DNA of 64,000 nucleotides, taken from the NCBI GenBank assembly GCA_041665845.1, contig JBAYIC010000008.1, positions 1,335-65,334 on the forward strand. Direction: 5' to 3'. A program made the translations under genes and the position numbers. The stretch's first letter is position 1. Every line of letters starts with the position of its first letter. The stretch is from Patescibacteria group bacterium. GTDB taxonomy: Bacteria; Patescibacteriota; Patescibacteriia; Patescibacteriales; UBA12465. This document shows, piece after piece, positions 19,548 to 62,125 of the stretch. The notes beneath the pieces were generated by a model that saw only the letters and a list, made by a program, of their open reading frames with translations, had not been told where the DNA came from and searched no databases.

Positions 19548-19577
19548 AATATATCACAAAAAAGCGCATGTTGTCAA
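19548..19577 (-). promoter_or_regulatory. consensus extended -10 promoter
   Basis: Gene-sense TTGACA-acatgcgcttttttgTGa-TATATT (18-nt spacer). Confidence 0.6.
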
Positions 19578-19616
19578 CCGTCCGCGCTTGTCTTGTTTCT
19601 ATTATACCCCTAACTA

Positions 19617-21836
19617 TTACTCAGCAAACAACTGGTCAATTTGTTCCTTAAAGGCAGGATCGAGTTGAATAGTTCTAGCGGCTGTTGCCCGAGCCTTATT
19701 GGTATTTCCAACTAATGTATATAATTTAGTTAAATTAAACCAAACTTCAGCGTCATCACTATAAATTCCTGATAATCTTTCAACAACAGTGATTGCTCTT
19801 AAATAGTCTTTGTTATTAGCTAAATAAGTTGCCGCTAAAATTAAAGCATTGCTCGAACCGATTTGATTCACTGCCCCAGCATCAATACACTTCTCTAAAG
19901 CCGGGATAACTTCAGTATCAGATTTTGTCTGCATATAAATCTGAGCTAAACGGCAATACGAATGAGGATATTTAGGATTTAGGCTAATTGCATACTGTAA
20001 AGTCTCAATTGCTTCTTGCGACCTGCCCTGCATTAAAAGAGATTGCGCTTTAACAAAATAAACAGGAATTCTTCCCGGACTAGCAGCGACTGCTTTATCA
20101 GCGGCAAGTAAAGAAAGATTGGAATAATAGTCTCTTTTAATTTCATCTTCATTGAAAAGTCTCGAACCTAAATCATAAACCTGCGCTAATTGTAATTGAA
20201 ATAGATTATCTTTCTCATTATACTCAGCATTTTTTTCAGCTAAGAGAACTAGGTATTCGTATTCGGTTTGCAATTTATCAGATGACAAAGAGGCCAAAAG
20301 CTCTGGGTTACCAGCTACCAAATTGATAAGAGTCGCTCTCCCGTCTCTATCTAGAGCCGTTCCGGTTAAACTTTCTCTAAAAATATTGAAACCTTCTTCC
20401 GTCCTGCCAATGATAACAAAAGAATAGCCGTCTATTACCCCCTTAAGCATTCGATAAGGCTTAAGATTAGCATTGGAAACTACAATTAAAGAAATAATCA
20501 GTAGCACAATTAAGGCTAACCATTCTCTACTTGTATCTTTTAGCCAACTAGAATTAACAGTTACCTCCCTATCAGCCTCAATAGCATTATCATTCGGAAG
20601 CCAATAGATAAAACCAATCATTATCATCAGCCCAATATAGGTAACAAAGGAATCAAAAACCGCTAAATTCTGAATAAAATAGGCAGTCATCAAAGCAACC
20701 ACGACAACTATTTCTAAATTACGACGCCCCGCCTCTGTTTGATTGATTTTTTTACCATTCTTTTTTAATTCACACCAAAGATAATAAAGGGCAAAAATAA
20801 GAATACTTAAATAGGTTATAAATCCCGCTAAACCGGTTGTAGAAATAATATCAATTAAATTATTATGTGCTCTATCAAAATAAGTTTCGACCCTATCGTA
20901 ATCAAAAAATTTAGGATTAAATTGACGATCAAAAATAATTGCATAATTACCAAAGCCGGTTCCAAGTAGTGGATGATATTTGAAATCACGAGCGGCTCCT
21001 TGCCAAGATAATAATCTAGTTTGAAAAGTAGTCTTTTGTGAAGTTAAATTTCTTAAAAAACTATTTTGGAACCAGGTAGCTTGTTGCTGTGAAAAAATAA
21101 TAGCAACAATAATAACCATCAAAGCGCAAACGGTTAAAAAACTGTACTTTATTTTTTTTTGGCTATGGAAAATACCAATTAATAACATAGCCATGAATAT
21201 ACTAGCCGCTAAACCAATAATTGCCCCAGAAGTATGCATGTTTTTAAACTGTAAAAGCATGATGATCGTCGGAATAAAATAAAGATAACGCCAATTATTT
21301 CTAGTACGAAAAAATAAAATTGTGGCAAAAAAGATGTTAAATATTAAATAACCACTAACGTAGGCCGTATTTCCAATTGTGCTGTAACCATGTTTACCCA
21401 ACAAACCAATCAAACTAACTATAACAGCGGCCGTGATTGATGCTAAAAATAATATTTGCCATTCTTTCCAGGTTCGAAAAACCGTAATCAAAATAAAAAA
21501 GAAAATTAAGAAATGTAAAAGATGAAAGAAACCAAGCATTCTTTCAACGTCTCCCCAAAAGCTTAAATTAAAATCAACACCGGTAAAACATGATAACAAA
21601 ATAATGGCGAAGTATGAAATTAGCCCGACTACCATTAAATTTAATTTTGGCCGATAACTAGGATAACGCCAAATCAAAACTACCCAGAAAGCAAAAAGCA
21701 ATTCCATCAAAATATTAAAGGAAATTTGTTTGGAACTGATGTAAGGAAAAAGTAAATCAGCAAAAACAAAGAGGACAAAAAATAAAGAAATAATTAATCC
21801 CCCTTGAAGAATACGTAAATAAATTTTTGACGACAT
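19617..21836 (-). CDS. O-antigen ligase/polymerase-like (Wzy_C) membrane protein fused to C-terminal TPR repeats
   Basis: 739 aa with about 11 TM helices. Loop with FDRAHNNLIDIISTTGLAGF is typical of the O-antigen ligase family. The C-terminal ~300 aa is TPR-like (AQVYDLG..., AISLNPKYPHSYCRLAQIYM, AARTIQLDPAF). Confidence 0.8.
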   Translation of the reverse strand: MSSKIYLRILQGGLIISLFFVLFVFADLLFPYISSKQISFNILMELLFAFWVVLIWRYPSYRPKLNLMVVGLISYFAIILLSCFTGVDFNLSFWGDVERMLGFFHLLHFLIFFFILITVFRTWKEWQILFLASITAAVIVSLIGLLGKHGYSTIGNTAYVSGYLIFNIFFATILFFRTRNNWRYLYFIPTIIMLLQFKNMHTSGAIIGLAASIFMAMLLIGIFHSQKKIKYSFLTVCALMVIIVAIIFSQQQATWFQNSFLRNLTSQKTTFQTRLLSWQGAARDFKYHPLLGTGFGNYAIIFDRQFNPKFFDYDRVETYFDRAHNNLIDIISTTGLAGFITYLSILIFALYYLWCELKKNGKKINQTEAGRRNLEIVVVVALMTAYFIQNLAVFDSFVTYIGLMIMIGFIYWLPNDNAIEADREVTVNSSWLKDTSREWLALIVLLIISLIVVSNANLKPYRMLKGVIDGYSFVIIGRTEEGFNIFRESLTGTALDRDGRATLINLVAGNPELLASLSSDKLQTEYEYLVLLAEKNAEYNEKDNLFQLQLAQVYDLGSRLFNEDEIKRDYYSNLSLLAADKAVAASPGRIPVYFVKAQSLLMQGRSQEAIETLQYAISLNPKYPHSYCRLAQIYMQTKSDTEVIPALEKCIDAGAVNQIGSSNALILAATYLANNKDYLRAITVVERLSGIYSDDAEVWFNLTKLYTLVGNTNKARATAARTIQLDPAFKEQIDQLFAE

Positions 21837-22064
21837 AATATAAAATTAAAATTTAATTGAGCGGTAATTTTTAATAAAATTAAAAAATCCTAATATAATT
21901 ATAACAGATTCTTGCTAAACCCCAAGCCCCTTGACTTATTATTTATTATATGTTAACTTATGAAGTCACCCGTTCTTTCGAAATATATAAGAGGATAGCC
22001 ACAGCAGCAGTAAAATTTGCTGGGGGTTAAAAGATAATAAATCTTTACCCCTAATTCTAAACAT

Positions 22065-22226
22065 ATGTTTAGACTTTTCAACAGCTTTTTTTCACTACTA
22101 CTCACAATTATTGTGTTAAAATGGCTTCTCCCTCCTGATACAGCTGATTTAGCAAATCAAATCTTGGTCAATATTTTGACTATTATTAGAGATTTGATAG
22201 CTATAATCACGCTACCACCAACATAA
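22065..22226 (+). CDS. possible 53-aa hydrophobic peptide (below the ORF-track size cut-off)
   Basis: ATG 22065 to TAA 22224-22226: MFRLFNSFFSLLLTIIVLKWLLPPDTADLANQILVNILTIIRDLIAIITLPPT. A strong terminator follows directly. No clear RBS or promoter. Confidence 0.3.
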   Translation: MFRLFNSFFSLLLTIIVLKWLLPPDTADLANQILVNILTIIRDLIAIITLPPT

Positions 22227-22229
22227 CTT

Positions 22230-22256
22230 AAAGAGCTTTCTACGGAAAGCTCTTTT
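22230..22256 (+). terminator. rho-independent terminator
   Basis: AAAGAGCTTTC-tacg-GAAAGCTCTTT, 11-bp perfect stem, then TTT. Confidence 0.7.
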
Positions 22257-22281
22257 AATTTTCCTAAATTTTCCCTAAGTA

Positions 22282-22310
22282 TTGACATTTTTATATAAAT
22301 ATGCTATAGT
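22282..22310 (+). promoter_or_regulatory. consensus extended -10 promoter of the paralog pair
   Basis: TTGACA (22282-22287), 17-nt spacer ending in TGc, TATAGT (22305-22310). About 90-nt leader. Confidence 0.65.
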
Positions 22311-22401
22311 TCTCAGAAGGAAAATCTAATTTCCCTACCCTCGATATGGGGAGAGTCATATCAAAAAAATAAAAGTAAAGCACCTTAAAAATTAATCGCA
22401 C

Positions 22402-23451
22402 ATGAAAAAGAATCGCATTTTTTTCGTATTTTCGACCGCTATGATGGCCGTATGTTTTTTTATCCTGGCTCTTGCCATGGACGGACAGGCACAAAGTTCT
22501 AAGTTCCTCGATACCTATAACAAGGTACTGGAACTGAACAAGGACCGATTTGCAAACTTAAACGATCTCCCAATTGGAGCTCTGGTACTTTTCCCATCAC
22601 GATTCGGTGATAACAGCCTGGAGGCCTGGAAAACAGTTTCCTCCGATAACATGGGAGGTAAACATGACTGTATCTGGTATATGACCGGACGTTATATGGA
22701 CGCTGTTGCTGTTCATAGCCAAGCCGAAGCTACTCCTCCGACTCCATCAGACCAGCAAGCTAAACAGCAATTACCTAATCCGCCCGCCGAAAAACAACCG
22801 CTTTGGTGGTGGAGCTTGATTGCTCCTGCTTTGTGTATTATCTTTCTGCTTTGGTATTGGTTTTGGTCTAACCAAAAAAAGAACCCGAATCATTACCCTG
22901 CGGTCGGAGAAAATTTGGAAAGAATGTCTAAAACAGAAGCAATGATGAGCTTAAAAAACTTTTTGGGTGAAGGAGATATTCTTCTTAATATCCATCAGGG
23001 AAAATTGAAGCGGCGTTTTGGTCCCAGAAAACTTGCTTGCCGAATGATGTTCGGAGACGGGTTTTATCGCAATGTTTGGATGAAACAGAACGATGGGATT
23101 ACGGTTATGCTGATTAAAAACGGCGAAGTCATCAGAAAAGTGCACCGCAGAAGTACAGGATCTAATGGATTCTTCACTGGAACCCTAACCGTTCCTAACG
23201 GTTGGTACATTGAGTACTTTGAGTTTGTTCAGGTAATTTTTGAGAAAATCACCGCCGAAAGTGATGCAAGTCAGTTAACTGAACAACCTAAAAAAGAACA
23301 GGCTAATGAAATCTGTTTGGATTTAAACACGATCATGGAAGCAGCTAAAGATTTTCGCAAGATAAAAATTGTGAAAAATCAAAAAGGAAAAACGAAAGTT
23401 GAAATCTCAAAATTCATCGGAGACAAAAAACCAAAAAACAAAAAACACTGA
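22402..23451 (+). CDS. unknown bitopic membrane protein, paralog A (signal peptide, LysM-like segment, TM, C-terminal domain, Lys-rich tail)
   Basis: 349 aa. N-terminal hydrophobic signal. LELNKDRFANLNDLPIGALVLFPS. GKHDCIWYMTGRY. TM LWWWSLIAPALCIIFLLWYWFW. NPNHYPAVGENL. RMMFGDGFYRNVWM. KKPKNKKH tail. Confidence 0.8.
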   Translation: MKKNRIFFVFSTAMMAVCFFILALAMDGQAQSSKFLDTYNKVLELNKDRFANLNDLPIGALVLFPSRFGDNSLEAWKTVSSDNMGGKHDCIWYMTGRYMDAVAVHSQAEATPPTPSDQQAKQQLPNPPAEKQPLWWWSLIAPALCIIFLLWYWFWSNQKKNPNHYPAVGENLERMSKTEAMMSLKNFLGEGDILLNIHQGKLKRRFGPRKLACRMMFGDGFYRNVWMKQNDGITVMLIKNGEVIRKVHRRSTGSNGFFTGTLTVPNGWYIEYFEFVQVIFEKITAESDASQLTEQPKKEQANEICLDLNTIMEAAKDFRKIKIVKNQKGKTKVEISKFIGDKKPKNKKH

Positions 23452-23453
23452 AA

Positions 23454-24500
23454 ATGAAAAAAAACTTTTTGTTGATTATCGTTGTGATTCTTGTTCTGGC
23501 TTTAAACAGTCAGGCTAGAAGTCCGAGACCGCGGATGACTCTCGATGAGGAATTTCAAAGAACCTATCAAAGGGTTCTTGAAATGAATCAAACAAGATTC
23601 AAAGATCTCAAGAGAATTCCAATCGGAGAAACTATTCTCGTTCCCTCACGCTGGGATGAGCGGGATATAGAAATGTTCGAGTTACGACCACCAACCAACG
23701 GTCGACACGATTGCATCTATCTGCTTGTTCACCGATATGTTTATGGTGAGGCAAGTATAGAGGATTCTGGCCCAGCTAGTGGAAATATATCAAACACGAG
23801 CGTTCCCGCAATCACAACAACACCAGAAGAATCTCCTAAAAAATCCAACGGCTTATGGTGGTTAGCTATTCTCCCAATTATTCCGATAACAATAGGCGGA
23901 AGAAAATGGTGGGAAAACAGACACAATCCGGATAGTTATCCTCCGGTTGGTAAGAACTTGGACTCCTTGGAACCGGCCGCAGTTGTGGCTGAAGTTCAAA
24001 GAGTATTCGAAGTGAACGGCAATAAAGTTCTCGAAGTTAAACGCGGAACTTTATGTCGCTTAAGCGGACCTAATAAAATCAAAGTCAGGATGAAATTCGG
24101 TGATAATAAAGACAGGAATGTCTGGATACTTCCGAATGAATCAGTCTGTAAGATTAAAGTCCGAAACATTTTCGGACAAGAGTCTTACGAATATTGCCGT
24201 AGTGCTTGCACTAATGGCATGATATTAGACCATTTCGAACTTCCCAAAGGCTGGGAGTTCGTTATCAACCGGGCAACCTTAACAACAGTGCCCGAAATTA
24301 CTACCGCCACAGTTATCCCAACTGTAATACCAACTGCAGTGGAAAAAACTGATGTTATTCTCCCGTTGGTTGAAAACCAAAGAAGGCCACCGCGGTGTAC
24401 AAAAAATAAGCACCGCTGTAAGACCTGTAAAAAATTCAACCCCAAATATGGGAAGAAAAAAAGGATCTGCGGCTTCAAAGCAAAGCCGCGAAAATTGTAA
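23454..24500 (+). CDS. unknown bitopic membrane protein, paralog B, with Cys-rich basic C-terminal tail
   Basis: 348 aa. Colinear with paralog A (LEMNQTRFKDLKRIPIGETILVPS, GRHDCIYLLVHRY, LWWLAILPIIPITIGG, NPDSYPPVGKNL, RMKFGDNKDRNVWI). Tail is RRPPRCTKNKHRCKTCKKFNPKYGKKKRICGFKAKPRKL. Starts 2 nt after the stop of paralog A. Confidence 0.8.
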   Translation: MKKNFLLIIVVILVLALNSQARSPRPRMTLDEEFQRTYQRVLEMNQTRFKDLKRIPIGETILVPSRWDERDIEMFELRPPTNGRHDCIYLLVHRYVYGEASIEDSGPASGNISNTSVPAITTTPEESPKKSNGLWWLAILPIIPITIGGRKWWENRHNPDSYPPVGKNLDSLEPAAVVAEVQRVFEVNGNKVLEVKRGTLCRLSGPNKIKVRMKFGDNKDRNVWILPNESVCKIKVRNIFGQESYEYCRSACTNGMILDHFELPKGWEFVINRATLTTVPEITTATVIPTVIPTAVEKTDVILPLVENQRRPPRCTKNKHRCKTCKKFNPKYGKKKRICGFKAKPRKL

Positions 24501-31234: not shown

Positions 31235-34200
31235 TTATTCATAGTTTACCCAATAACTTGTTGAATACGATCCAGATGCTGTAGAGGAAGGAATCTTTAC
31301 CATAACATGAACATCTGTCTGTATGCCATCAAGAGTGGCATCGGCATCTGTTGATACGGTTAAGTTGGCCGGAAAAGTATTCGCCGTTGCAAATGGCACC
31401 GCAGTTTCTGCAGAGCTACCTGTCCCAGATCCAATTTGTTCTGAATAATATTTCATGTTACCAGCGGCGGTTAAACTATTTGAACCCGATGTCCAATTAT
31501 TAAACTTGAGGGCAAAATCGTTTTGATTTGTTGGAAGAGTTATTCTTATTTTCCATTCCCAACCGTTAGTATAAGTATTATCAGCTGCGCCTCCGGTTGT
31601 TTGATTTGTAATATTGGTAGTGCTAACAATACCGAAAGTACCAGCACCAGCAGCAACAGTTGTAAAGTCATAATCAGCATTAGCAGCCAAGGCATTGCCC
31701 GATAGATCTTTAACTCCGGTTGATATTCTATAAATATAATTTCCGGAATTACTTAGATCAGAAGTTGGGTTAATATAAATTTTAGTAGAAGCGCCGTTAT
31801 TTTCTAAACTTATTGTAGCAGCAACCTCAGTATCAGTTCCAATATTAACCGCATCAGCAGTTCCTAAATCATTATAAAGTTTTATTGTATTGTTATTAAC
31901 TGTTAATTGATCTAGGGCTTCGCTCATCGTTATTGTTATTGTTGAATTAATTGCAACTCCAGTTGCGGCATCGGCAACTGAAACTGCCGTAATTGTCGGA
32001 GCGGTACTTTCCGAACTTATTCCAGCAGCTGTATAGACAGCGGCAACAGCGTTATTTCCAACCAAGTCTTTAATATTTGTGGTATTTGGAGTTACTTTGA
32101 CCCATTTACTGCTCGGGATTGAAGATCCGTCAGTTACTTCATCTAAAGTAATTCTAACAATTGTCTTTGTTGCGTCAGTAAAGATAATTGTCGCATTAGC
32201 TAAGGATAAAGTTTGAATGTTCAAACCTGAGTTATTATCAGCATATTGAACAGTCCAATTACTGTTAGTTAAAGCGGTGTCCGCTAAAACTTCATCAGAA
32301 GTAATAGTAACAGTATCTCCGCCACCGTTAACAGAAGCGGCTGCTATAGTAATTGTTGGAGTGACTGCTTCTTTGGCAACAGCGGCAGAGGCTACTCCTG
32401 AAGTTGAAACCGGATTACCAGCAAGATCAGTAACCGTAGCAGCTAAAACAACTGTTTCTGTCACTCCGTTTACAATATAAGAAGTATCAATCGCTTCGTT
32501 CAAGGTAATTGTGTAAACAGTATCGCCAGCGCTCCAAACACCAGTGGCATTAGTTAAAGTTAAAGCTCCTCCCGTGGAACCAGTAATAGAGGTAATTCCT
32601 GTCAATGAATCAACGTCTAGCGTTGCGGGAATCATGGCTTCACTAAAAGTTAGAGCTACCGTGTCTCCACCTTTATCAATAGAAACCCCGGCTACAGTAT
32701 ACGTAGGAATATTGGCGTCAACCGCGTCAGAATCTTGAGTAATAGGAGTAACGTAGGTGTTGCTTGGATTACCAGCTGCGTCAGTTACAATCAAGCCAAC
32801 AATTGGGATGACTGCACCAGCAATAACATCAGTTCCGCTATTAGTAACAGTAAAGGTGGCGGTTAAAGTTGTATTACTGGTGACGGCCAAACTTCCTAGA
32901 GCAAATCCACCAATAGTCCCACCAGTTAAGGTAGTTCCAGTTGCTACTCCATCATCATCAATAGTAATTGTAGCGGTAACAACATCACCGACATTCATCG
33001 CGACATTAGGGATAGAAACGCCGGTAATGTTTGGCAAGTTAGCATCAATTAAATCACTGGCTTGAGCAATCGGCGTAGAATAAGCTGTGTTGACGTTCAA
33101 AGCGGTGTCAGTTAAAACCAAATTTGTAACTGGAATACTCGCGCTAGCCGCAACATCCGTGCCATTATCGGTTATTGTAAAAGTCGCGGTATAAGTAGTG
33201 TCCCCTGTTTTGGTTAAAGCTCCGAGATTAAAACCACCAATAGCACCGGAAACGAGAGTAAAAGTATCAGCATCAGTGCCGGTTGTAATGGTCGCCGTAA
33301 CAGTATCACCAACATTCATTGTAACATCAGGAATTGAAACGGAAACTATATCAGGATTATTAGCATCAATTGCGTCGGCGTTTTGTGTGATATCAGCTGT
33401 ATAAGTATTACTTGGATTCCCGGCGGCATCAAGTAATGTTAATCCGACTACTGGCACAACCGCGCCAGTGGCGATATCCGTGCCGTTATCGGTTACTGTG
33501 AAAGTAGCTGTAATAGTTGTATTACCAACAATGATTACGCTGGCCGGATTTAAAGTAAACCCACCGATAGTTCCACCTGTTAAGGTGGTGCCAGTGGCGT
33601 CTCCATCATCAGCAATAGTAATGGTAGCGGTAACAGTATCACCAACATTCATAGCTGAATTAGGAATACTAACATTAGTTATGTCTGGGGAATGAGCATC
33701 TACGACAAGCGTGTTAGCAGTTACCGTTGTATAAGCAACATTAGTGTTTCCTGCAGTATCGGCAAACACTACACTAGCCGGTAAAGCATTAGAAGCTCTA
33801 TCCGTATCATTTTCTGCTACTGTATAAGTAAAAGTATAAGTATTATCGCCAACATCAGTGAATGAACCAACGGCTTTAGTATTTACTGTGACAGCGCTTT
33901 GTACGTACAAAGGAGCATCAGCGGTAACTGTTACCGTAATAACATCACCAACATTAGCATAGCCAGATGATGGTGATATTGCAATTGCACTTACTATTGG
34001 CGCATTAGCGTCAACGGTGACGGTACCGCTAGAAGTAGGAGCACTAATATAAGCTATACTCGAATTAGTTGCTGCATCAATAAGAATAACACTAACCGGA
34101 ATAGCACCAACAGAAGCGCGGTCGGTATCAAGAGAAACTACCGTGTATGTTCCAGTGTATACTCCGCCAGTCGCATCGGCGAAAGCGCCTAAAGGCTGGC

Positions 34201-35374
34201 CATTAATTGTAATAGCTCCGGCAGTGTAGCCGGCAGCATCGGCAGTAATTGTTACTGGGATTGCGTCACCAATTTTATAAGCTCCGGCAGTAATTGCAAC
34301 ACCGGAAATTATCGGTCGATTTGCGTCAATTGCATCGGCGTTTTGTGTAATATCAGCCGTATAAGTATTACTTGGATTGCCAAGAGCATCAAGCAAGGTT
34401 AATCCGACTACTGGTACAACAGCACCGACGGCTACATCTGTGCCACCATTAGCGATAGTAAAGGTAGCGGTTATTGAAGTATTGCCAACAATAATTACAC
34501 TGGCTGGATCTAAAGTAAATCCACCAATAGTTCCACCAGTTAAGGTAGTTCCAGTTGCTACTCCATCATCATCAATGGTAATAGTGGCAGTAACAACATT
34601 ACCGACTTTCATTGCAACATTAGGAATAGAAACACCGGTAATGTTCGGCAAGTTAGCGTCAATCGAATCTCCCGCCTGGGAGATTGGCGTTGAATAAGTC
34701 AAACTCGCATTAGTGGCGGTATCAGTTAAAACTAAATTAGCAACGGGAACATCTGAACCCGCAGCAACATCCGTACCGTTATCAGTCACTGTGAAAATAG
34801 CGGTATAAGAAGTTGCGCTTGTTTTTGCTAATGACCCGAGAGCGAATCCACCAACAGTTCCGGAAGTAAGAGTATAGGCATCTGAGTCACTGCCAGTAGT
34901 GATTGTGGCTGTTACAACATCGCCAACGTTCATAGCTGTATTAGGAATGGAAATATTAGATATTGTCGGTTTAGTATTATCAACTGTAAAAACAGCATTA
35001 GAGGTATCACCGATAAGAGTATCGGCGTTTGAGGTGACTTTAATTTTATAAGTTGCCGCATCACCGCCAGCAGTAGCTGTGTCCCAGGCCTCGCTTCCAT
35101 CATTAGCGGTCCCGGCAACAATTAAAGTATAGCTGTTGGAATCACAATTAGCGCCCACACAATAATAAATATTAACTGTAGCTGGATCAGCTTCGGGAGT
35201 TGTGGCCCAAGTAATATTTTTTGAGCCATTCCAATTTTCACCGCCATTAGGGGTAGTTACGGAAACAGCGCTAATAGCCGCTTTGGCCGATGGCACAACC
35301 ATCATCATTCCCATTCCAATAACCAAAAGGGCTATAATGAACAGAGAAATTTTGTTTTTTAAAAAGTTTTTCAT
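31235..35374 (-). CDS. giant surface (S-layer-like) protein made of tandem Ig-like repeat modules
   Basis: 1379 aa. Signal peptide with AKA cleavage context. At least 9 repeats of ~100 aa (…SIPN.AMNVGD.VTATIT…GG.IGGF.L…TATFT..N.GTD…IDAN). C-terminal SbsA/Big_5-like segment (ITAVSVADAATGVAINSTITITMSEAL). Thr/Ala/Val/Gly-rich. Confidence 0.85.
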   Translation of the reverse strand: MKNFLKNKISLFIIALLVIGMGMMMVVPSAKAAISAVSVTTPNGGENWNGSKNITWATTPEADPATVNIYYCVGANCDSNSYTLIVAGTANDGSEAWDTATAGGDAATYKIKVTSNADTLIGDTSNAVFTVDNTKPTISNISIPNTAMNVGDVVTATITTGSDSDAYTLTSGTVGGFALGSLAKTSATSYTAIFTVTDNGTDVAAGSDVPVANLVLTDTATNASLTYSTPISQAGDSIDANLPNITGVSIPNVAMKVGNVVTATITIDDDGVATGTTLTGGTIGGFTLDPASVIIVGNTSITATFTIANGGTDVAVGAVVPVVGLTLLDALGNPSNTYTADITQNADAIDANRPIISGVAITAGAYKIGDAIPVTITADAAGYTAGAITINGQPLGAFADATGGVYTGTYTVVSLDTDRASVGAIPVSVILIDAATNSSIAYISAPTSSGTVTVDANAPIVSAIAISPSSGYANVGDVITVTVTADAPLYVQSAVTVNTKAVGSFTDVGDNTYTFTYTVAENDTDRASNALPASVVFADTAGNTNVAYTTVTANTLVVDAHSPDITNVSIPNSAMNVGDTVTATITIADDGDATGTTLTGGTIGGFTLNPASVIIVGNTTITATFTVTDNGTDIATGAVVPVVGLTLLDAAGNPSNTYTADITQNADAIDANNPDIVSVSIPDVTMNVGDTVTATITTGTDADTFTLVSGAIGGFNLGALTKTGDTTYTATFTITDNGTDVAASASIPVTNLVLTDTALNVNTAYSTPIAQASDLIDANLPNITGVSIPNVAMNVGDVVTATITIDDDGVATGTTLTGGTIGGFALGSLAVTSNTTLTATFTVTNSGTDVIAGAVIPIVGLIVTDAAGNPSNTYVTPITQDSDAVDANIPTYTVAGVSIDKGGDTVALTFSEAMIPATLDVDSLTGITSITGSTGGALTLTNATGVWSAGDTVYTITLNEAIDTSYIVNGVTETVVLAATVTDLAGNPVSTSGVASAAVAKEAVTPTITIAAASVNGGGDTVTITSDEVLADTALTNSNWTVQYADNNSGLNIQTLSLANATIIFTDATKTIVRITLDEVTDGSSIPSSKWVKVTPNTTNIKDLVGNNAVAAVYTAAGISSESTAPTITAVSVADAATGVAINSTITITMSEALDQLTVNNNTIKLYNDLGTADAVNIGTDTEVAATISLENNGASTKIYINPTSDLSNSGNYIYRISTGVKDLSGNALAANADYDFTTVAAGAGTFGIVSTTNITNQTTGGAADNTYTNGWEWKIRITLPTNQNDFALKFNNWTSGSNSLTAAGNMKYYSEQIGSGTGSSAETAVPFATANTFPANLTVSTDADATLDGIQTDVHVMVKIPSSTASGSYSTSYWVNYE
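32907..33049. repeat. intragenic DNA repeat, copy 1 (partner 34521..34663)
   Basis: 143 bp, about 90% identical by eye to 34521..34663. The offset of 1614 bp is in frame. Confidence 0.8.
33367..33665. repeat. intragenic DNA repeat module (partner 34327..34625)
   Basis: About 300 bp, roughly 75-80% identical by eye at an in-frame offset of 960 bp. Both start CAATTGC(G/A)TCGGCGTTTTGTGT(G/A)ATATCAGC. Confidence 0.75.
34521..34663. repeat. intragenic DNA repeat, copy 2 (partner 32907..33049)
   Basis: See the partner entry. Begins CCACCAATAGT(T/C)CCACCAGTTAAGGTAGTTCCAGTTGCTACTCCATCATCATCAAT. Confidence 0.8.
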
Positions 35375-38867: not shown

Positions 38868-38901
38868 ACAAAAAAGCGGCCTCCGAACAAACGAAGACCG
38901 C
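38868..38901 (-). terminator. strand-specific terminator of the 39991->38929 ORFan unit
   Basis: Minus-sense GCGGTCTTCG-tttgtt-CGGAGGCCGC (two G:U pairs, which are C:A mismatches on the plus strand), followed by TTTTTTGTT. Confidence 0.65.
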
Positions 38902-38928
38902 TATCATATTTTAGCAGCTAATTTCATA

Positions 38929-39648
38929 TCATTTCATTATATTGTTAATGATTTCAGCTACCTCATCTTTATTGGCTTGATCAGTAATCTGCACAAAGAC
39001 AATCCGTGGGTAAATTTTCCCATTATTTTCTTTTACCCGAATAGATTGCACACAATAACTTCCGTCTGTGACCTGAACGTAGGCCTCTTTAATTGGACAA
39101 AATCCATCACGTGAATGCTTCCCAAAAACTGCCTTACGCAATTCGCCGATATTGCCATCGGTAAAATAATTAAAGCAACGGCTACCAGCCTTGGAATGTT
39201 TGCATAAATTACCACCGTCAGGAATATTAAGATTGATTTCATCAACAACCTGCAAGAGTTGCGACGTAAGTTCGTGCGACCATAAAGCCGTTAAAATTGG
39301 ATTCGTATTATTGCTCATTAAATGCCAAACTCCACGTTTAGCACTCCCAAAATTAAGGGCCCAAAGACCTTTTCCTGGCCTTAGTAACAAAGCCCTTCTA
39401 CCTCTGGTTCTTTTCTTTAATTGAGCAATCGAGAGATTGAACGTTTCGTCATCAAGACTCATCAATCCAACCATCGATTGGCGATTAACAAAGGCTCTTT
39501 TTACAAAGTAGTTAATACCCGCAATAGTGAGCTTAGTCTCGGGCTCAATTTGCTGATATAACCTACCATCTGGTTCTCTAAGTACGAAAGCCTTGCCTTC
39601 ATAATTACCGTAAACATAAATCCTGCTCATGGGATTAATATTTAGCAA
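38929..39648 (-). CDS. ORFan protein with a four-Cys cluster
   Basis: 239 aa (alternative start MSRIYVYG at 39630). Cys pattern CKHSKAGSRC...FC...YC. Motif GKGLWALNFG. No family recognised. Confidence 0.65.
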   Translation of the reverse strand: MLNINPMSRIYVYGNYEGKAFVLREPDGRLYQQIEPETKLTIAGINYFVKRAFVNRQSMVGLMSLDDETFNLSIAQLKKRTRGRRALLLRPGKGLWALNFGSAKRGVWHLMSNNTNPILTALWSHELTSQLLQVVDEINLNIPDGGNLCKHSKAGSRCFNYFTDGNIGELRKAVFGKHSRDGFCPIKEAYVQVTDGSYCVQSIRVKENNGKIYPRIVFVQITDQANKDEVAEIINNIMK

Positions 39649-39991
39649 TTACAATGGCCTGGTGATACACAAACCCCTCACTTACCCGTTTTAGGGATCT
39701 ACTTTCATTCCCTAACATGAATATAGCAAATTGGGTTTTGAGGCGTTTTTGGGCTTCTTCTTTTGTAAGCACAGTGTATATGCTTGGATAGTTAATATCA
39801 TTACAAAAGCTGAACCAGTGTTCTTCGACGATACACGTATCGCCGATGGAGAGATTTGGGCGGTTTTCGATGTTTTTGATGTTTTGGATAGTATCGCTAC
39901 TATTTAATTTTACTACATCGATTTTTTCCGGAATGCAACTAAATAAGCATTCCAATAACAGTACGGTAAAAAGGATGATTTTTGTTTTCAT
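39635..39991 (-). CDS. ORFan putative lipoprotein
   Basis: 118 aa. MKTKIILFTVLLLECLFSC has a lipobox-like LFSC. Overlaps the next gene by 14 nt. Confidence 0.6.
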   Translation of the reverse strand: MKTKIILFTVLLLECLFSCIPEKIDVVKLNSSDTIQNIKNIENRPNLSIGDTCIVEEHWFSFCNDINYPSIYTVLTKEEAQKRLKTQFAIFMLGNESRSLKRVSEGFVYHQAIVIAKY

Positions 39992-40045
39992 TGATTAAAT
40001 TTATAATATTCAGAAACTAATTATTAACGTACAATGCAATAAAAA

Positions 40046-40074
40046 AATTTATCATGAAGCTATATTTTTGTCAA
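40046..40074 (-). promoter_or_regulatory. consensus extended -10 promoter (ORFan cassette type)
   Basis: Gene-sense TTGACAAAAATATAGCTTCATGATAAATT: -35 TTGACA, 17-nt spacer ending in TGa, -10 TAAATT. Confidence 0.65.
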
Positions 40075-40120: not shown

Positions 40121-40126
40121 GATTTC

Positions 40127-41701: not shown

Positions 41702-41714
41702 AACTAATAGTGTT

Positions 41715-42428: not shown

Positions 42429-42497
42429 GACGCGACGATTAAAGGTTTAGAAAAAAAGGATTAATTAAAGATTAATTAATTGTTAAAGTAATAAAAC

Positions 42498-42526
42498 AAT
42501 ATAACACTAAATTATATTTTTGTCTA
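42498..42526 (-). promoter_or_regulatory. extended -10 promoter (ORFan cassette type) overlapping the stop codon of the HD gene
   Basis: Gene-sense TAGACAAAAATATAATTTAGTGTTATATT. The -35 TAGACA contains the TAG stop of the upstream operon. Confidence 0.55.
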
Positions 42527-44067: not shown

Positions 44068-44493
44068 TTATTTAATTTTCTCTACCAATTTAGTAAACTG
44101 CTCAATCTCTTTATCATTTAAACCAGAAAAAGATTTGCTAGCTGATTTGATATATTGTTTTTTAAAATTATTGAAATCTTTTTCAGCGTTAGCCGTTAAT
44201 TTTATATTCACACCGCGGCGATCAGAAGAATTCTCTTCCCTTTTAACTAATTTCTTTCCTACCAAACCATTAGTAAACTGGGTAACCGCCCCGGGAGTAA
44301 CATGAAGAAAATTAGCAATTTCTTTTACCGAAGCTACGCCTTTATTTTCATAAATAAAAAATAGAATCATTACTTGTGGTTTTCCCAATATCGAACCGCC
44401 AAAAGAAAAACATTGTTCTTTATGAATAGAATGGATTGCTCGTCTTAATTCTTCAATTAAACCTTTTAATAATTCTTGTCTTTTATTTTTCAT
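44068..44493 (-). CDS. MarR-family transcriptional regulator
   Basis: 141 aa. Winged-HTH region VKEIANFLHVTPGAVTQFTNGLVGKKLVKREENSSDRRGVNIKLT. Confidence 0.85.
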   Translation of the reverse strand: MKNKRQELLKGLIEELRRAIHSIHKEQCFSFGGSILGKPQVMILFFIYENKGVASVKEIANFLHVTPGAVTQFTNGLVGKKLVKREENSSDRRGVNIKLTANAEKDFNNFKKQYIKSASKSFSGLNDKEIEQFTKLVEKIK

Positions 44494-49541: not shown

Positions 49542-49593
49542 AAAATAGGTGATTAATATTTTTTATTTTTTAAATATGTTAATTAATTATTAC

Positions 49594-49622
49594 TTTAGTT
49601 GATTATTATTTTAGCAACTAAA
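49594..49622. promoter_or_regulatory. palindrome overlapping the efflux-operon promoter (candidate MarR operator)
   Basis: TTTAGTTG (49594-49601), then 13 nt, then CAACTAAA (49615-49622). The right arm overlaps the TGc element (49614-49616) and the intervening 13 nt contain the -10 box (49608-49613). Confidence 0.4.
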
Positions 49623-49636
49623 CTAAAATTTGTCAA
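49608..49636 (-). promoter_or_regulatory. extended -10 promoter of the 8-gene efflux operon
   Basis: Gene-sense TTGACA, 17-nt spacer ending TGc, TAAAAT. Confidence 0.6.
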
Positions 49637-49667
49637 GTAAAAAGGGCTCGATTGAAACCGAACCCTT
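49637..49667 (-). terminator. strand-specific terminator of the KH-domain ORFan
   Basis: Minus-sense AAGGGTTCG-gtttcaat-CGAGCCCTT (one G:U pair, a C:A mismatch on the plus strand), followed by TTTTT. It abuts the next promoter. Confidence 0.65.
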
Positions 49668-49704
49668 CTCAACAATTTTTAGAAAATCCTTATGCTTTTT
49701 TATG

Positions 49705-50538
49705 TTAAATGACATAAAGTTTTTTACCTAATCTTTCGGCGGAGCTTTTTATGTTAAGCCCGTCTTTTCCAATTACAATTCCCTTCATTTCTTCAGGAAT
49801 TTTAAGATTAACTGCATGCTTATCTTGAATGCGGGCGGTATTAAGTAAAACCACTCGATAAGTATGTGTTAATTTGCAGCGATGATCCTGAGTATAAAGA
49901 ATACAGCGTTTGCCCAGTTCAAAATAATGCTCTGGGATATCGGTGAATTCAAACTCCTCATGGCCACCGAGATCCATGACCGCCGTCAATCCAAAGTCTT
50001 TTGAAGCTTGAAAAAACTTATTAGCAAAGTAAGCTTGCTTACGACGTTGCCATTCTTTTTTTGCTTCATCAACTTTCAAATGCGCTTCAATCATTTCGAA
50101 AGTAGCGGGAACTTGCCCAAAATAATTTTCTTCTAAATCAAGAATAAACTGATCATGGAAGAAAAGTTTTTTAGTAAGGCCAACAGCTTCTTTTTGACGA
50201 CCTCGCAGAGCGCCAACAACAAGCAAGGGGGCGATAAATTCATCGGTAACCGGATTAATCTTTCGCACAATAAAATAATTGCGCACTTCAAATCCAGAAT
50301 TACCTTTATGTTCAGACTCATATCCCCACTCTTTTAAAATAGAGACTTCCCCTTCACAGTCACCGGGAATTGTCGGCCATTTTTCCTCGACGGGCTCGAT
50401 TTTGAACTCTGGTGTTACTAAACTCAAAACTTTCTCGCCAATTGGTAAGACTCTCCAGCCGCCATTCGTTTCCAAATATTGGCGCTGGACCCAGAACAGT
50501 TTTCCAACGATTTCTTCGTTTACTTCCAGAAGTTTCAT
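49705..50538 (-). CDS. ORFan protein with a C-terminal KH (RNA-binding) domain
   Basis: 277 aa. The last ~45 aa are IPEEMKGIVIGKDGLNIKSSAERLGKKLYVI, which fits the KH GXXG loop (IGKDG). The N-terminal ~230 aa is unrecognised. Confidence 0.65.
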   Translation of the reverse strand: MKLLEVNEEIVGKLFWVQRQYLETNGGWRVLPIGEKVLSLVTPEFKIEPVEEKWPTIPGDCEGEVSILKEWGYESEHKGNSGFEVRNYFIVRKINPVTDEFIAPLLVVGALRGRQKEAVGLTKKLFFHDQFILDLEENYFGQVPATFEMIEAHLKVDEAKKEWQRRKQAYFANKFFQASKDFGLTAVMDLGGHEEFEFTDIPEHYFELGKRCILYTQDHRCKLTHTYRVVLLNTARIQDKHAVNLKIPEEMKGIVIGKDGLNIKSSAERLGKKLYVI

Positions 50539-50612
50539 TTTTTATCATGTTTTAGTTTTTGGTGAAAATTTTATTTTGTTTTTAATGTTATTAATGTTCA
50601 AAGCAATAAAAA

Positions 50613-50641
50613 AATATATCACGAAGTTATGTTATTGTAAA
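50613..50641 (-). promoter_or_regulatory. extended -10 promoter (ORFan cassette type)
   Basis: Gene-sense TTTACAATAACATAACTTCGTGATATATT. The downstream TTTTTTTATTGCTTTGAACATTAATAAC resembles the 40046-40074 unit. Confidence 0.6.
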
Positions 50642-55372: not shown

Positions 55373-56059
55373 ATGGCTAACAAAATAAGGGAGGATTTAG
55401 TGAAACGATTGAAAGAAATCCAAAAGAACCTGGATGATAGCAAAGAAATTGGCGCTCAAAAACTTGAACAGCTTAGTAACGAGGTAAAAAAATCATTTGA
55501 TAAAGCAATAAATTCTCTTGACTTCAAGATAAACGTTTTTAATGAACTCAAAATTAGACGCGATAATTTAAGAGCTTGGAAAATTAGTTCGCTAAAAACA
55601 TTCTTTCCGATTAATTTTAAATATCTTCTAAGCATGCCTTTTATATACGGCATGATTATTCCAGGACTGTTTTTCCATTTAGGCTTAGAGATATACCATC
55701 AATTTTGTTTTAGGCTTTACGGAATTCCTCGCGTTAAATCAAGGGATTATTTTGTCTATAATAGGCGCCTACTTCCCTATCTTAATTGGATAGAAAAATT
55801 AAATTGTTTCTACTGCAGTTATTTTAACAATCTTTTACGGTATGCGATTGAGATTTCCGGCCGAACTGAACGTTATTGGTGTCCGATTAAATACGCGACT
55901 AAAGTAGAGGATACCCATTCTCAATATAATAAATTTGTAGATTATTTAGATGCCGAAAATTTCAGAGGGAAATGGCAAGAACTAAGAGACTTCTCTGATA
56001 TTGACCAGCTAGAACAAAGCAAAGAAGATAAATGCGATTTTGTAAAAAAACAAAGCTGA
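55373..56059 (+). CDS. hypothetical membrane protein with a Cys motif
   Basis: 228 aa. N-terminal coiled coil, hydrophobic hairpin (LLSMPFIYGMIIPGLFFHLGLEIYHQF), CFYCSYF...YWCP. Confidence 0.6.
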   Translation: MANKIREDLVKRLKEIQKNLDDSKEIGAQKLEQLSNEVKKSFDKAINSLDFKINVFNELKIRRDNLRAWKISSLKTFFPINFKYLLSMPFIYGMIIPGLFFHLGLEIYHQFCFRLYGIPRVKSRDYFVYNRRLLPYLNWIEKLNCFYCSYFNNLLRYAIEISGRTERYWCPIKYATKVEDTHSQYNKFVDYLDAENFRGKWQELRDFSDIDQLEQSKEDKCDFVKKQS

Positions 56060-57137: not shown

Positions 57138-57148
57138 TTTGAAATAAT

Positions 57149-58063: not shown

Positions 58064-58102
58064 GATAAAATTAAAGCCCCGGAACTCTTCGAGTCCAGGG
58101 CT
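58064..58102 (-). terminator. strand-specific terminator of the 58941->58165 unit
   Basis: Minus-sense AGCCCTGGA-ctcgaagagt-TCCGGGGCT (one G:U pair, a C:A mismatch on the plus strand), followed by a T-rich tract. Confidence 0.6.
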
Positions 58103-58164
58103 TTTTAATCACAAATGTTTTTTTAATTTTTGACGGCGAGGTTAAACCTCTACATCACCGCTTC

Positions 58165-58503
58165 TTACTTTGAAGTTTTAGATAACCCAACAACTGTTAA
58201 ATCAGTTGCTTTTACTCCGCGCCCCATTAAAGAATCAGCAATTTGTTGCGCAATGGCAAAGTTAACTCGCGTATCATTTGATTCTTCTTCAAATACAACA
58301 ATTCTTAAATTGCCTTTTTCAGGAAAGCAAACTTGGGGAAGAAACTTGCCGTCAAGTTTAAAGAAAATGTTGTATTGATTTGCGCCCTCAATTGATACCG
58401 GGCGCATTTTCAAAATTACTTTTTTCGATAAATTTCTCAAATTACTCATCGGCTCAGTACTTCTAAGCCGCCAGTTTCCGTTAACAATGATCACAAACAA
58501 CAT
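58165..58503 (-). CDS. ORFan protein
   Basis: 112 aa, no recognised domain. Confidence 0.55.
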   Translation of the reverse strand: MLFVIIVNGNWRLRSTEPMSNLRNLSKKVILKMRPVSIEGANQYNIFFKLDGKFLPQVCFPEKGNLRIVVFEEESNDTRVNFAIAQQIADSLMGRGVKATDLTVVGLSKTSK

Positions 58504-58521
58504 AGTTTTCTTTGGTTTTAG

Positions 58522-58941
58522 TTAGACATCAAATTCTTCAATTTCAATCCAAAATCCAACATCAGTCGGATTTAGTTTTGCAAAATCTTCGCGGGAAACA
58601 ATTTCACCGCCTTTTAGATCAGGGTGAGAATAAAATATCTTACCGATATCTTTCCGATGTGGTTGCGCCAGAGGCAATAAGTGGTGGGTTGTAAAACCAG
58701 AGTTATCTCGCTTATACTCCATCAACTTACTAGCGTCTATTCTTTTGCAGCAAATGCAACCGAACATTTTCATGCTACCGGACGGACTTGGTTTTAACCA
58801 AGCCCAATATGCGCCGCAATTGCAACTAGCTCCAACAACTCTCCAACCATCTTTTAAGAAATCAAACCAGAAATCTGGGATTTCCTCCATGTTTAAATCT
58901 TTAGTCGCCTGTACGACTTTCTCTAAATCTTTTCTTTTCAT
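58522..58941 (-). CDS. ORFan protein with a Cys cluster
   Basis: 139 aa. SCNCGAYWAW...FGCICCKR (five Cys). No recognised domain. Confidence 0.6.
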   Translation of the reverse strand: MKRKDLEKVVQATKDLNMEEIPDFWFDFLKDGWRVVGASCNCGAYWAWLKPSPSGSMKMFGCICCKRIDASKLMEYKRDNSGFTTHHLLPLAQPHRKDIGKIFYSHPDLKGGEIVSREDFAKLNPTDVGFWIEIEEFDV

Positions 58942-59008
58942 CGATTAATAGTTTTTGGGTTTTTAAATTTTATAATTAATTTTTGTTAAAGGTCTATAAT
59001 AATCAAAA

Positions 59009-59037
59009 AATATATCAGAAAGGTATATTTTTGTCAA
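59009..59037 (-). promoter_or_regulatory. consensus extended -10 promoter (ORFan cassette type)
   Basis: Gene-sense TTGACAAAAATATACCTTTCTGATATATT. Confidence 0.65.
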
Positions 59038-59040
59038 TTT

Positions 59041-59068
59041 TTGTCAATTCTATCTAGTATGATATAAT
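59041..59068 (+). promoter_or_regulatory. divergent extended -10 promoter for 59095..60135
   Basis: TTGTCA (59041-59046), 16-nt spacer ending TGa, TATAAT (59063-59068). Confidence 0.55.
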
Positions 59069-60150: not shown

Positions 60151-60179
60151 TTTACAAGAAAGCGCACTTATGATAATAC
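60151..60179 (+). promoter_or_regulatory. extended -10 promoter
   Basis: TTTACA, 17-nt spacer ending TGa, TAATAC. Confidence 0.5.
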
Positions 60180-61310: not shown

Positions 61311-61346
61311 TATTGACCTATTAGTTCTAACTACAGGAAAATAAAT

Positions 61347-61383
61347 ACAGGCGACTTTGTTTTTAAAGGTTGCCTGTTTTTTT
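61347..61383 (+). terminator. rho-independent terminator
   Basis: ACAGGCGAC-13 nt-GTTGCCTGT followed by TTTTTTT. Confidence 0.7.
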
Positions 61384-61404
61384 GTTGGTTACATAATCAT
61401 TAAA

Positions 61405-61440
61405 TTTAAAAGCCCAATCTTTCGAAAGGGCTTTTATTTT
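61405..61440. terminator. candidate terminator for the 61817->61476 gene
   Basis: AAAAGCCC...GGGCTTTT with an internal TTTCGAAA palindrome. A/T runs on both sides. Confidence 0.5.
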
Positions 61441-61475
61441 GCGTTTTTAAAATTTTTTAGCGATACGACTTGGAC

Positions 61476-61817
61476 TTAATAAATCCGATATTTATTATCA
61501 TTGACCCACTCGTCTTTGATAACGTTATTAAATGCCGCAGCATGTGAAGGACGCTTCTGCATAGCGACAATAATAACTTTTTGAGTATCGGCGATACTTC
61601 GCCTAATAGGATTACGGCCAAACCAGTTTATAGACTGTTGTCTTTTGAGCATACTCAAGGCCTGAAATAAAGCAATCAGATCATCAGGTTCCATCTTATT
61701 GATGGCCTGAGTGAAGGTAAAGAGCCTTTCAAGAAGCAACCCTGCTCGGTCGCCTTCTATTGGCTTGGAAATTTCCATAAAAAATTTTTCGGTACTGTTG
61801 GTGTTTTCGGTGTTCAT
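61476..61817 (-). CDS. ORFan protein
   Basis: 113 aa, no recognised domain. Confidence 0.55.
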   Translation of the reverse strand: MNTENTNSTEKFFMEISKPIEGDRAGLLLERLFTFTQAINKMEPDDLIALFQALSMLKRQQSINWFGRNPIRRSIADTQKVIIVAMQKRPSHAAAFNNVIKDEWVNDNKYRIY

Positions 61818-61849
61818 TTGTTCAGTGTTTTTTTGGTTTAATTACTTCA

Positions 61850-62050
61850 TTATTTTTTCTTTCCAAATACTGCTTCACCGGCTATTCCTACTGGTATAAC
61901 TACCAAGAAAAAGGCGAGTACGCCAACAGGAACGGTCAATAATAATGTATGCTTAACGCCATTGCTAGCCCAAAATGCTAAAAGCATAATTAGGCCAAAT
62001 CCTAATAGCAAAGATGCTCTGGATAAGTTTTTTTTGTTTTTTTCTTTCAT
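61850..62050 (-). CDS. small two-TM membrane protein (hypothetical)
   Basis: 66 aa. LLLGFGLIMLLAFWA and LTVPVGVLAFFLVVIPVGIAG. Confidence 0.5.
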   Translation of the reverse strand: MKEKNKKNLSRASLLLGFGLIMLLAFWASNGVKHTLLLTVPVGVLAFFLVVIPVGIAGEAVFGKKK

Positions 62051-62096
62051 TTTTTTTCTATTTTAAGGTTCTGTAAACTAATTTCACTATCAAGAA

Positions 62097-62125
62097 AAGA
62101 TATCATAAGACATGTTTTCTGTCAA
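62097..62125 (-). promoter_or_regulatory. extended -10 promoter (ORFan cassette type)
   Basis: Gene-sense TTGACAGAAAACATGTCTTATGATATCTT. Confidence 0.55.

Follow-up and report, generated by a model that had tools for sequence, protein, structure and literature searches.

We examined a stretch of 64,000 nucleotides from a Falkowbacteria-like Patescibacteria group bacterium (hereafter the window; coordinates count from its first letter), in which four copies of a conserved promoter-like module with a built-in palindrome lie on the minus strand at 40021–40074, 42473–42526, 50588–50641 and 58984–59037. The window has a GC content of 35.4%, and a Pfam scan of its roughly 60 genes annotated dnaE, parAB, mnmA, glycosyltransferases, CorA, a DEAD-box helicase, a MacB/HlyD efflux operon with MarR and a two-component system, with about 25 genes giving no Pfam match; Rfam placed RNase P RNA at 14313–14722 (minus strand) and tRNA-Leu. 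An earlier note on this DNA had described a nearly identical extended −10 promoter cassette at seven sites, in front of almost every ORFan unit, and had read the units as dispersed accessory cassettes under strong and perhaps co-ordinate expression. The flagged feature is real, but it is narrower than claimed and differently built.

All seven of the quoted 29–30-mers are present verbatim, in position and in strand, and all seven have the layout of a sigma-70/SigA-type extended −10 promoter (−35 near TTGACA, spacer of 16–18 bp, TG at −15/−14, TAnnnT); each lies upstream of its unit and is co-oriented with it, with 7–74 nt between −10 box and start codon, as in loci of foreign genomes. The likeness beyond the hexamers, however, extended to the sites at 40.0, 42.5, 50.6 and 59.0 kb (minus strand) and not to those at 62.1, 19.5 and 60.15 kb. 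An unprompted repeat search returned the same four as a 54-nt family (D7; 70–83% identical), and an extended pattern allowing up to three mismatches matched exactly these four sites, against 0.2 expected. Scored with a weight matrix derived solely from eight foreign copies, the four reached 32–45 bits, whereas the best of the other 27 upstream regions reached 9.9 bits; the remaining flagged sites (62.1 kb, 9.9 bits; 60.15 kb, −3.2 bits; 19.5 kb, −8.3 bits) fell within the range of other promoters.

These three sites are generic sigma-70-type promoters, of the kind also found at the efflux operon, the helicase and tRNA-Leu: TTGACA-17-TGATATCTT ahead of hyp66b/hyp113 (62097–62125, minus), TTGACA-18-TGATATATT ahead of hyp126 (19548–19590, minus), and TTTACA with TGATAATAC ahead of hyp360 (60151–60179, plus). 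The caveat already attached to the cassette, that part of the signal is simply the genome-wide consensus, was correct: the strict motif TTKACA-N14-TGnTAnnnT occurs six times (0.2 in shuffles), and two of the six, at the efflux operon and hyp349, lie outside the list of seven. When the best promoter-like site of each of 31 units was aligned, we observed a −35 near TTGACA, a spacer of 16–18 bp (mostly 17) and TGn before TAnnnT, equally in annotated and unannotated genes (HlyD, helicase, SBP, TSP3, hyp349, hyp491, hyp275 and others). "Almost every ORFan unit" was thus an overstatement; about 16 of the 31 units begin with a gene lacking a Pfam match, four with the family and seven in the earlier list.

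Copy 1 (40021–40074; 45.5 bits) carries its −35 TTGACA at 40069–40074 and its −10 TAAATT at 40046–40051, and its transcript is predicted to start near 40040 with the shared leader ATTGCATTGTACGTTAATAA; the unit behind it (38869–39991) consists of hyp118 (39635–39991, with a lipoprotein-like N-terminus), hyp233 (38929–39630) and a terminator at 38869–38902. Copy 2 (42473–42526; 32.4 bits) has −35 TAGACA at 42521–42526, with a TAG that doubles as stop codon for the co-directional HD-domain gene upstream, −10 TATATT at 42498–42503 and the leader ATTACTTTAACAATTAA, followed by hyp237 (41715–42428, signal-peptide-like), hyp132 (41303–41701) and a terminator with two G-U pairs (41231–41264; unit 41231–42428). 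Copy 3 (50588–50641; 34.1 bits), with −35 TTTACA at 50636–50641, −10 TATATT at 50613–50618 and the leader ATTGCTTTGAACATTAATAA, precedes hyp277 (49705–50538, with a C-terminal KH domain) and its terminator (49639–49667; unit 49639–50538). The true hyp277 start is probably the ATG at 50550, 12 nt upstream of the listed one; the CACCAAAAACTAAAA-ATG at this upstream start (50539–50550, minus) is kept in two other genomes (L002 and L003; foreign loci are numbered with an L throughout).

Copy 4 (58984–59037; 43.3 bits), with −35 TTGACA at 59032–59037 and −10 TATATT at 59009–59014, is preceded by a 10-nt tandem duplicate TTGACAAAAA just before the −35; its unit (58067–58941) holds hyp139 (58522–58941, Cys-rich), hyp112 (58165–58503) and a terminator at 58067–58102, and the same module stands before a 93% identical orthologue in L015. 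In the region 59009–59068 the −35 region is duplicated in tandem (TTGACAAAAATTGACAAAAA), and the promoter of the divergent TSP3-repeat gene lies back to back with copy 4, its −35 TTGTCA (59041–59046) falling inside the reverse complement of the upstream TTGACAAAAA duplicate. As the earlier note had it, copies 1 and 3 stay alignable for about 30 nt more, with 45 of 54 positions identical (83%), sharing ATTGCnTTGnACnTTAATAA and ending at TTAATAA; other window pairs are only 70–72% identical. A terminator of its own was likewise found after each of the seven units (7/7), and the strand bias claimed for several of the stems appeared in four units as a far more stable sense fold (for example, −24.8 vs −10.3 kcal/mol). 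What holds of the proposed shared promoter, then, is a discrete class before several units with no assigned function, three of the seven sites being generic only; with a discrete promoter class and a terminator for each unit, common control or strength is plausible.

Three "extra" similarities had been listed, namely the spacer start AAAATATA, the TGA before the −10 box and the T-run. They are real, but not separate: all of them are the two arms of a single palindrome. In this 11-5-11 inverted repeat, AAAATATAnC, extended by the A that ends the −35, is complementary in reverse to GnTATATTTTT across a loop of 5 nt. The left arm is thus made up of the last base of the −35 and the first ten spacer bases; the right arm takes in the G of the extended −10, the base at −13, the −10 box and the T-run. 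Arm pairing reaches 8–10 of 11 positions in the window family (copy 1, 9, with left arm 40059–40069, loop 40054–40058 and right arm 40043–40053; copy 2, nine Watson-Crick pairs plus one G-T; copy 3, 8; copy 4, 10) as against 3–4 of 11 at the three non-family sites (3 of 11 at 62.1 kb).

The two arms also change together. Over 15 copies, 90% of cells pair, compared with 42–67% in slid registers, and the −13/−21 pair is found as GC (5), AU (2), CG (2) and UA (1), a covariation score matched by one of 500 shuffles. Variant −10 boxes are mirrored in the spacer: TATTCT (L020 at 4572, with an orthologue in L030) stands with the left arm AGAATA, TATTGT (L020 at 14143) with ACAATA, and TATTAT (two copies in L039) with ATAATA. 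When left arms were permuted among 17 sites, one of which (L030 at 5988) came from a palindrome scan, complementarity fell to 147.6 ± 2.9 from 165 in the real arrangement (p < 5e-5). A promoter on the opposite strand of the palindrome was rejected on inspection by eye, as that strand has neither a −35 nor a TG.

The module is not confined to the window. Its consensus runs TTGACA / AAAATATAnC TTnnT Gn / TATATT / TTTTT / ATT(A/G)C(C/T)TT... over about 55 nt, from the −35 to about +20. Ahead of the hyp277 orthologues in L002 and L003 the module is kept while the surrounding intergenic DNA has diverged; remoter hyp277 orthologues (47–55% identity) have ordinary promoters. A metagenome scan with a pattern that fixed only TTKACA, YTT, TG, TAWATTTTTT and ATT returned 16 loci on contigs of 0.30–0.45 GC, about ten of which had, in addition, the spacer AAA(A/G)T(A/G)TAn, which the pattern left free, and several the leader ATTACCTTAACAA; L011 and L020 belong to metagenome-assembled genomes (MAGs) filed at NCBI as "Patescibacteria group bacterium". 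A same-strand open reading frame (ORF) always starts 45–110 nt past the module, and the downstream proteins are unrelated, with no cross-hits in an all-against-all BLASTP except between true orthologues. Foreign copies precede a PncC-family amidohydrolase (L014), a purF-like amidotransferase (L026, the copy with about 88% identity over 50 nt to window copy 2), membrane proteins and HEAT-like proteins; the class is therefore not ORFan-specific, as had been proposed, and it is conserved yet not tied to particular genes. Module-type promoters lie before purD (L035 at 7148, minus; right half of the module only) as well as the purF-like gene (L026 at 4879, plus); this sequence association makes it possible that, in some genomes, the class is linked to genes of purine biosynthesis.

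Between copies, similarity begins exactly at the −35 and fades at about +20 to +35, and there are no terminal repeats. Two copies in L020 (L020a and L020b), which stand ahead of ORFs of 551 and 105 aa, agree in 60 of 65 nt, and variants are private to genomes (TGG in L020, mostly TGA in the window, the −10 box TATTAT in L039), with −13 base, −10 box and leader each taking a genome-specific form, which suggests intragenomic copying or concerted evolution. The window pair at 40.0 and 50.6 kb and the L020a/b pair have the properties by which putative mobile promoters were defined, at least 80% identity over 50–100 nt upstream of non-homologous genes (Matus-Garcia, Nijveen & van Passel 2012, PMC3488235).

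We scanned for palindromes with an A-tract, an 11-nt arm, a loop of 4–6 nt and a T-tract, and found two kinds of element in these genomes: an ordinary GC-rich bidirectional terminator, such as the one right behind tRNA-Leu (8811–8838), and the AT-rich module, always with TTGAC(A) in front, or TTGCG in L026. Perfect module copies fold at −7.4 to −10.4 kcal/mol (z of −2.7 to −5.1) with seven to eight T after the stem. Like bidirectional intrinsic terminators, the module has arms of 11 nt including 4–5 A/T, a loop of 4–6 nt and a long T-run, and its perfect copies stand directly behind genes and tRNAs; unlike them, it has an AT-rich stem (two G-C pairs, −7 to −10 vs −12 to −19 kcal/mol), short of the at least three G-C pairs asked for by the terminator scanner, and in every case has TTGAC(A) before it and a co-oriented ORF behind it.

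The module begins 7–9 nt behind tRNA-Asn (L024) and tRNA-Glu (L014), and 9–33 nt behind a co-directional gene in L020 (twice), L026 and L039; the 42.5 kb copy of the window, its −35 overlapping the HD-gene stop codon, is the seventh abutting copy. Perfect palindromes were found in six of the seven copies that abut a co-directional gene or tRNA, where there is no room for another terminator upstream of the module, but in only one of ten with a divergent neighbour or a separate terminator (Fisher p = 0.0037; p = 0.011 before two L039 copies, collected after the idea had formed, were added); three of the four window copies have divergent neighbours. This association with context is suggestive, not proof.

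Every conserved block of the module has a counterpart among the recognised elements of a core promoter. These are the −35, the 17-bp spacer (AT-tract/GC/AT-tract/TG), an extended −10 of the TRTG type, the −10 box, an AT-rich discriminator, a start of Y-R-Y form and the initial transcribed region. Judged from these blocks, the module most likely serves the housekeeping sigma factor as a complete and efficient promoter. Its anatomy agrees, one element after another, with the scheme of Kuo et al. 2025 (PMC12641261), which describes an AT-rich discriminator in Terrabacteria, a Y-R-Y start and a four-region spacer that can by itself alter the strength of a promoter up to 600-fold; the TRTG-type extended −10, or "−16 region", of Firmicutes and other Terrabacteria is attributed to Voskuil & Chambliss 1998, as cited in PMC12641261. 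The module shares with SigA/sigma-70 TRTG promoters the TTGACA, the 17-bp and four-region spacer, T(R)TGn, TAnnnT, the AT-rich discriminator and the Y-R-Y start, and differs from them in being conserved over 55 nt between unrelated genes and genomes and in having a spacer that is the reverse complement of the −10 plus discriminator.

That the module is a discrete conserved promoter class is, in our judgement, very likely. That its hairpin acts as a terminator falls somewhat short of an even chance, and to the whole statement, a reused housekeeping promoter whose hairpin can also end upstream transcripts, we assign a probability of about 0.5. The module is reused before unrelated genes, within Patescibacteria genomes and between them, and it shares its geometry (A-tract, stem, loop of 4–6, T-tract) with the ordinary bidirectional terminators found there. 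We propose that in a copy directly behind a co-directional gene or tRNA the hairpin and U-tract would end the upstream transcript about where the new one starts (stop/restart); where no transcript comes in, as presumably for copies 1, 3 and 4 of the window, the left arm would be free to decay. A still more specific, bifunctional version is tentative and rather doubtful: in these genome-reduced Patescibacteria the ~27-nt palindrome would serve both as terminator hairpin and U-tract for the upstream transcript, tRNAs included, and as the spacer, extended −10, −10 and discriminator of the next promoter, with the left arm co-evolving and the module copied to new genes within genomes. The module combines known kinds (housekeeping promoter, promoter reuse and terminator-like hairpin) in one conserved element, and a limited literature search returned neither a promoter class of the Candidate Phyla Radiation (CPR) nor a natural bacterial terminator-promoter element, which is absence of evidence only.

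Several points weigh against this reading. The window hairpins are weak (0 to −3.8 kcal/mol), and the GC-rich terminators nearby (−12 to −19 kcal/mol) are more stable than even the perfect copies (−7 to −10). The context association comprises 17 sites in partly post hoc categories, one site having come from the palindrome scan, and the pattern that yielded the metagenome copies had the right arm and the −35 fixed. Five new loci obtained with a looser, promoter-only detector (L035–L039) were mostly generic promoters with no clear context rule, and the non-Watson-Crick arm pairs (nine G-T vs five A-C) give no clear strand signal. The promoters of tRNA-Leu, RNase P RNA and cold-shock genes lie outside the class, which leaves a "strongest promoter" reading unsupported; and we infer promoter and terminator activity alike from sequence.

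The genes behind the sites, earlier described as without recognisable function, remained so: Pfam, NCBIfam and PHROGs gave only the weak C-terminal KH domain of hyp277, a PDB sequence search with five of the genes gave no significant match, and a Foldseek comparison of the hyp277 AlphaFold model (mean predicted local distance difference test score, pLDDT, 72.7) against PDB matched only the 40-residue KH domain, to NusA. Rfam searches of the window and nine loci returned RNase P RNA and tRNAs only, none at the module or the leaders. The expectation that the units are strain-variable accessories mostly failed, with homologues of hyp277, hyp237, hyp118 and hyp233 (47–86% identity) lying in one conserved block of several relatives. 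The gene order in L029, L032, L033 and L034 is PNP (minus), hyp277-like, hyp237-like, NUDIX, CSD, zf, ABC-F, hyp282-like (minus), hyp118-like, hyp233-like and CorA, so the module-driven genes of the window form a conserved, linked, lineage-specific set that is dispersed here. We found 11 homologues of hyp277 (47–100% identity), the 100% match being the NCBI entry [quoted passage not shown], with relatives at 86% and 76%, one of them in a "Candidatus Falkowbacteria" MAG; a hyp237 homologue follows directly behind that of hyp277 in L028 and L029, and homologues of hyp118 and hyp233 (48–53% identity) occur in L029, L032 and L033; in L029 the module at the hyp118-like gene is degenerate.

L026 lacks the 40.0 kb unit at the syntenic site, which fits the accessory reading, and only the hyp139/hyp112 unit looks species-restricted: hyp139 (locus tag WCT50_04240) had no homologue outside its own 90% cluster, and it alone is an ORFan in the sense of having no homologues outside the strain or species. 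Genes lacking a Pfam hit are not the same as ORFans, as hyp360, with 61 homologue clusters, and hyp228, with 451 homologues, make plain. The latter (55373–56059, plus), which has no Pfam domain and several Cys motifs, is a widely conserved Patescibacteria protein with no function assigned; its homologues were counted at E ≤ 1e-20, and the 120 best of them are 53–82% identical and come from Magasanikbacteria, Falkowbacteria, Gracilibacteria, Peregrinibacteria and others.

The elevated GC content reported from hand-counted samples of such genes did not hold for whole genes (0.36 for module-driven genes vs 0.353, p = 0.33), but it did at third codon positions (GC3; 0.339 vs 0.271, p = 1.4e-4). 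The GC3 rise in the window involves C- and G-ending codons alike; it was not seen for the module-driven genes of L020 or L026, and thus does not belong to the promoter class as such. On these two grounds, codon bias was set aside as a sign of high expression.

Four other explanations were weighed. The most serious, though unlikely, is that the dyad has no present function: a good promoter would have spread by copying or gene conversion, as a putative mobile promoter, with the palindrome kept or re-formed by template-switch repair from one arm to the other, or left over from an ancestral terminator that acquired a −35. The decay of the window left arms with all promoter elements kept fits this account, as do the left arm being the least conserved part of the orthologous hyp277 series, the genome-specific sub-variants (−13 A in the window and G in L020; TATTAT in L039) and the published identity threshold already reached by two pairs (PMC3488235); putative mobile promoters are likewise similar upstream regions of 50–100 nt before non-homologous genes, within a genome and across genera. 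It leaves aside, however, the concentration of perfect palindromes directly behind co-directional gene and tRNA ends, and the boundaries, which fall exactly at the −35 edge and lack terminal repeats and target duplications, fit functional constraint better than transposition; the module further departs from putative mobile promoters in having only some pairs at or above 80%, boundaries at promoter elements, a co-varying palindrome and no visible mobilising element. We consider it improbable that the palindrome is instead the operator of a conserved dimeric regulator covering spacer and −10, the four units and their counterparts forming a regulon. The dyad does overlap the −10, as in classic repressor sites and MarR-, LexA- and Fur-type promoter-embedded operators, with inner half-sites TATAnC/GnTATA 11 bp apart centre to centre; the efflux promoter indicates that operator-like palindromes around the −10 occur in the lineage, and the module-driven window genes are physically linked in related genomes. 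An operator would nonetheless be expected to keep a single half-site, whereas the arms here co-vary at several positions and one genome, L020, has three arm sequences (TATATT, TATTCT and TATTGT), which argues against a fixed protein recognition site; neither a constant half-site nor a cognate regulator was found, no candidate regulator gene being linked to the sites, and the driven genes differ by genome (purF-like, PncC-family, membrane proteins, HEAT-like).

The seven sites might also be nothing special, merely good matches to the housekeeping consensus of an AT-rich genome. This is true of three of the seven, and TTGACA-17-TGn-TAnnnT also stands before the efflux operon, the helicase, hyp349, SBP and TSP3, with TGn near-universal; for the four it is already contradicted by the gap of more than 20 bits to every other upstream region, by the independent discovery of the 54-nt repeat family and by the conservation elsewhere of spacer and leader that the search had left unspecified, and as a general account it is very improbable. 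We give least credence of all to mobile accessory cassettes (integron-, moron- or island-like) with their own promoter and terminator and the palindrome as recombination site. Small units with their own expression signals between unrelated genes do recall phage morons and integron cassettes; the 40.0 kb unit is missing from L026, hyp139/hyp112 is limited to the source species and a close relative, tRNA genes, a classic integration target, stand immediately before two foreign copies, and GC3 is raised in the window. Yet the units have no prophage context, no 3' attC-type site or second palindrome at the 3' end of any unit, and no integrase, recombinase or phage gene near the four (Pfam, NCBIfam and PHROGs); none of the ~60 window proteins scanned has an integrase domain, the palindrome is 5' and itself the promoter, and 10 proteins gave no PHROGs match that would point to a moron or prophage. 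The consensus had no matches in phage, plasmid and viral collections, and the genes are mostly conserved and syntenic in relatives (hyp277, hyp237, hyp118, hyp233). A 5-bp central spacer is, moreover, atypical of tyrosine-recombinase cores. An origin from phages or plasmids was dropped after a pattern scan of viral contigs and a BLASTN search with the consensus gave chance-level matches only.

Beside the module, the 19.5 kb site appears to present a second, different mode of terminator/promoter overlap in this genome, on the layout of its sequence: a terminator-like hairpin after the Wzy_C-TPR gene (19545–19620, minus; AAGCGCG...CGCGCTT, −15.9 kcal/mol over 76 nt) holds the −35 of the hyp126 promoter in its loop, and the U-tract of the hairpin is the promoter spacer. 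The efflux-operon promoter (HlyD-ABC-MacB-MacB-MarR; 49593–49636, minus), TTGACA-17-TGCTAAAAT, is flanked by the inverted repeat TTTAGTTTAGTTG ... CAACTAAAG, which is kept in L002, L003 and L030 and is probably the operator of the operon-encoded MarR (44068–44493). Between hyp118 and hyp282, an intergenic block of about 220 nt (40093–40352, plus) is 83% identical to L026 (12147–12363), above the conservation of the flanking genes, and recurs in L029 (~7256–7520), L032 and L033. Within it are a promoter that is conserved (TTGCAA-N16-TGCTAAAAT), one hairpin, TTTATTGAT/ATCAATAAA as a long-range helix, and a terminator-like hairpin, GACCGGATT...AATCCGGTC, with T-rich sequence behind it, shortly before the hyp282-family gene. 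Compensatory changes were seen at three of the predicted pairs in a set of five sequences, Rfam gave no match (best E 0.67), and the block is a candidate riboswitch-like leader or small RNA.

Other observations concern gene content. The RNase P RNA is of bacterial class A (177.8 bits), and the ORF listed at 14433–14633 lies inside it and is spurious; the minus-strand ORF at 63422–63826 is likewise no gene, being a shadow of the purine nucleoside phosphorylase-like gene that starts at 63392 (plus) and extends past the window end (63392–64000). Tandem genes hyp349 and hyp348 (22402–24500, plus) encode similar secreted or membrane proteins, have the highest GC3 of the large window genes (0.40–0.41) and have a homologue in L026. 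A Big_5-domain protein of 1379 aa (31235–35374, minus) has internal DNA repeats with periods of ~321–333 and 960 nt (families D1–D6), and most genes here are missing a Shine-Dalgarno sequence.

The organisation of transcription is hardly known in Patescibacteria (CPR), which have small genomes, few regulators and many genes without known function. The present result corrects the idea of ORFan insertions, and several of the units belong to a conserved linked set that is worth joint characterisation. A recognisable promoter class offers a handle for annotating transcription units in Patescibacteria and, for genetic tools, a strong-promoter candidate. Should the hairpin indeed terminate transcription, two signals would be written into one sequence, leaving a signature of covariation between spacer and −10 that ordinary promoter models do not predict.

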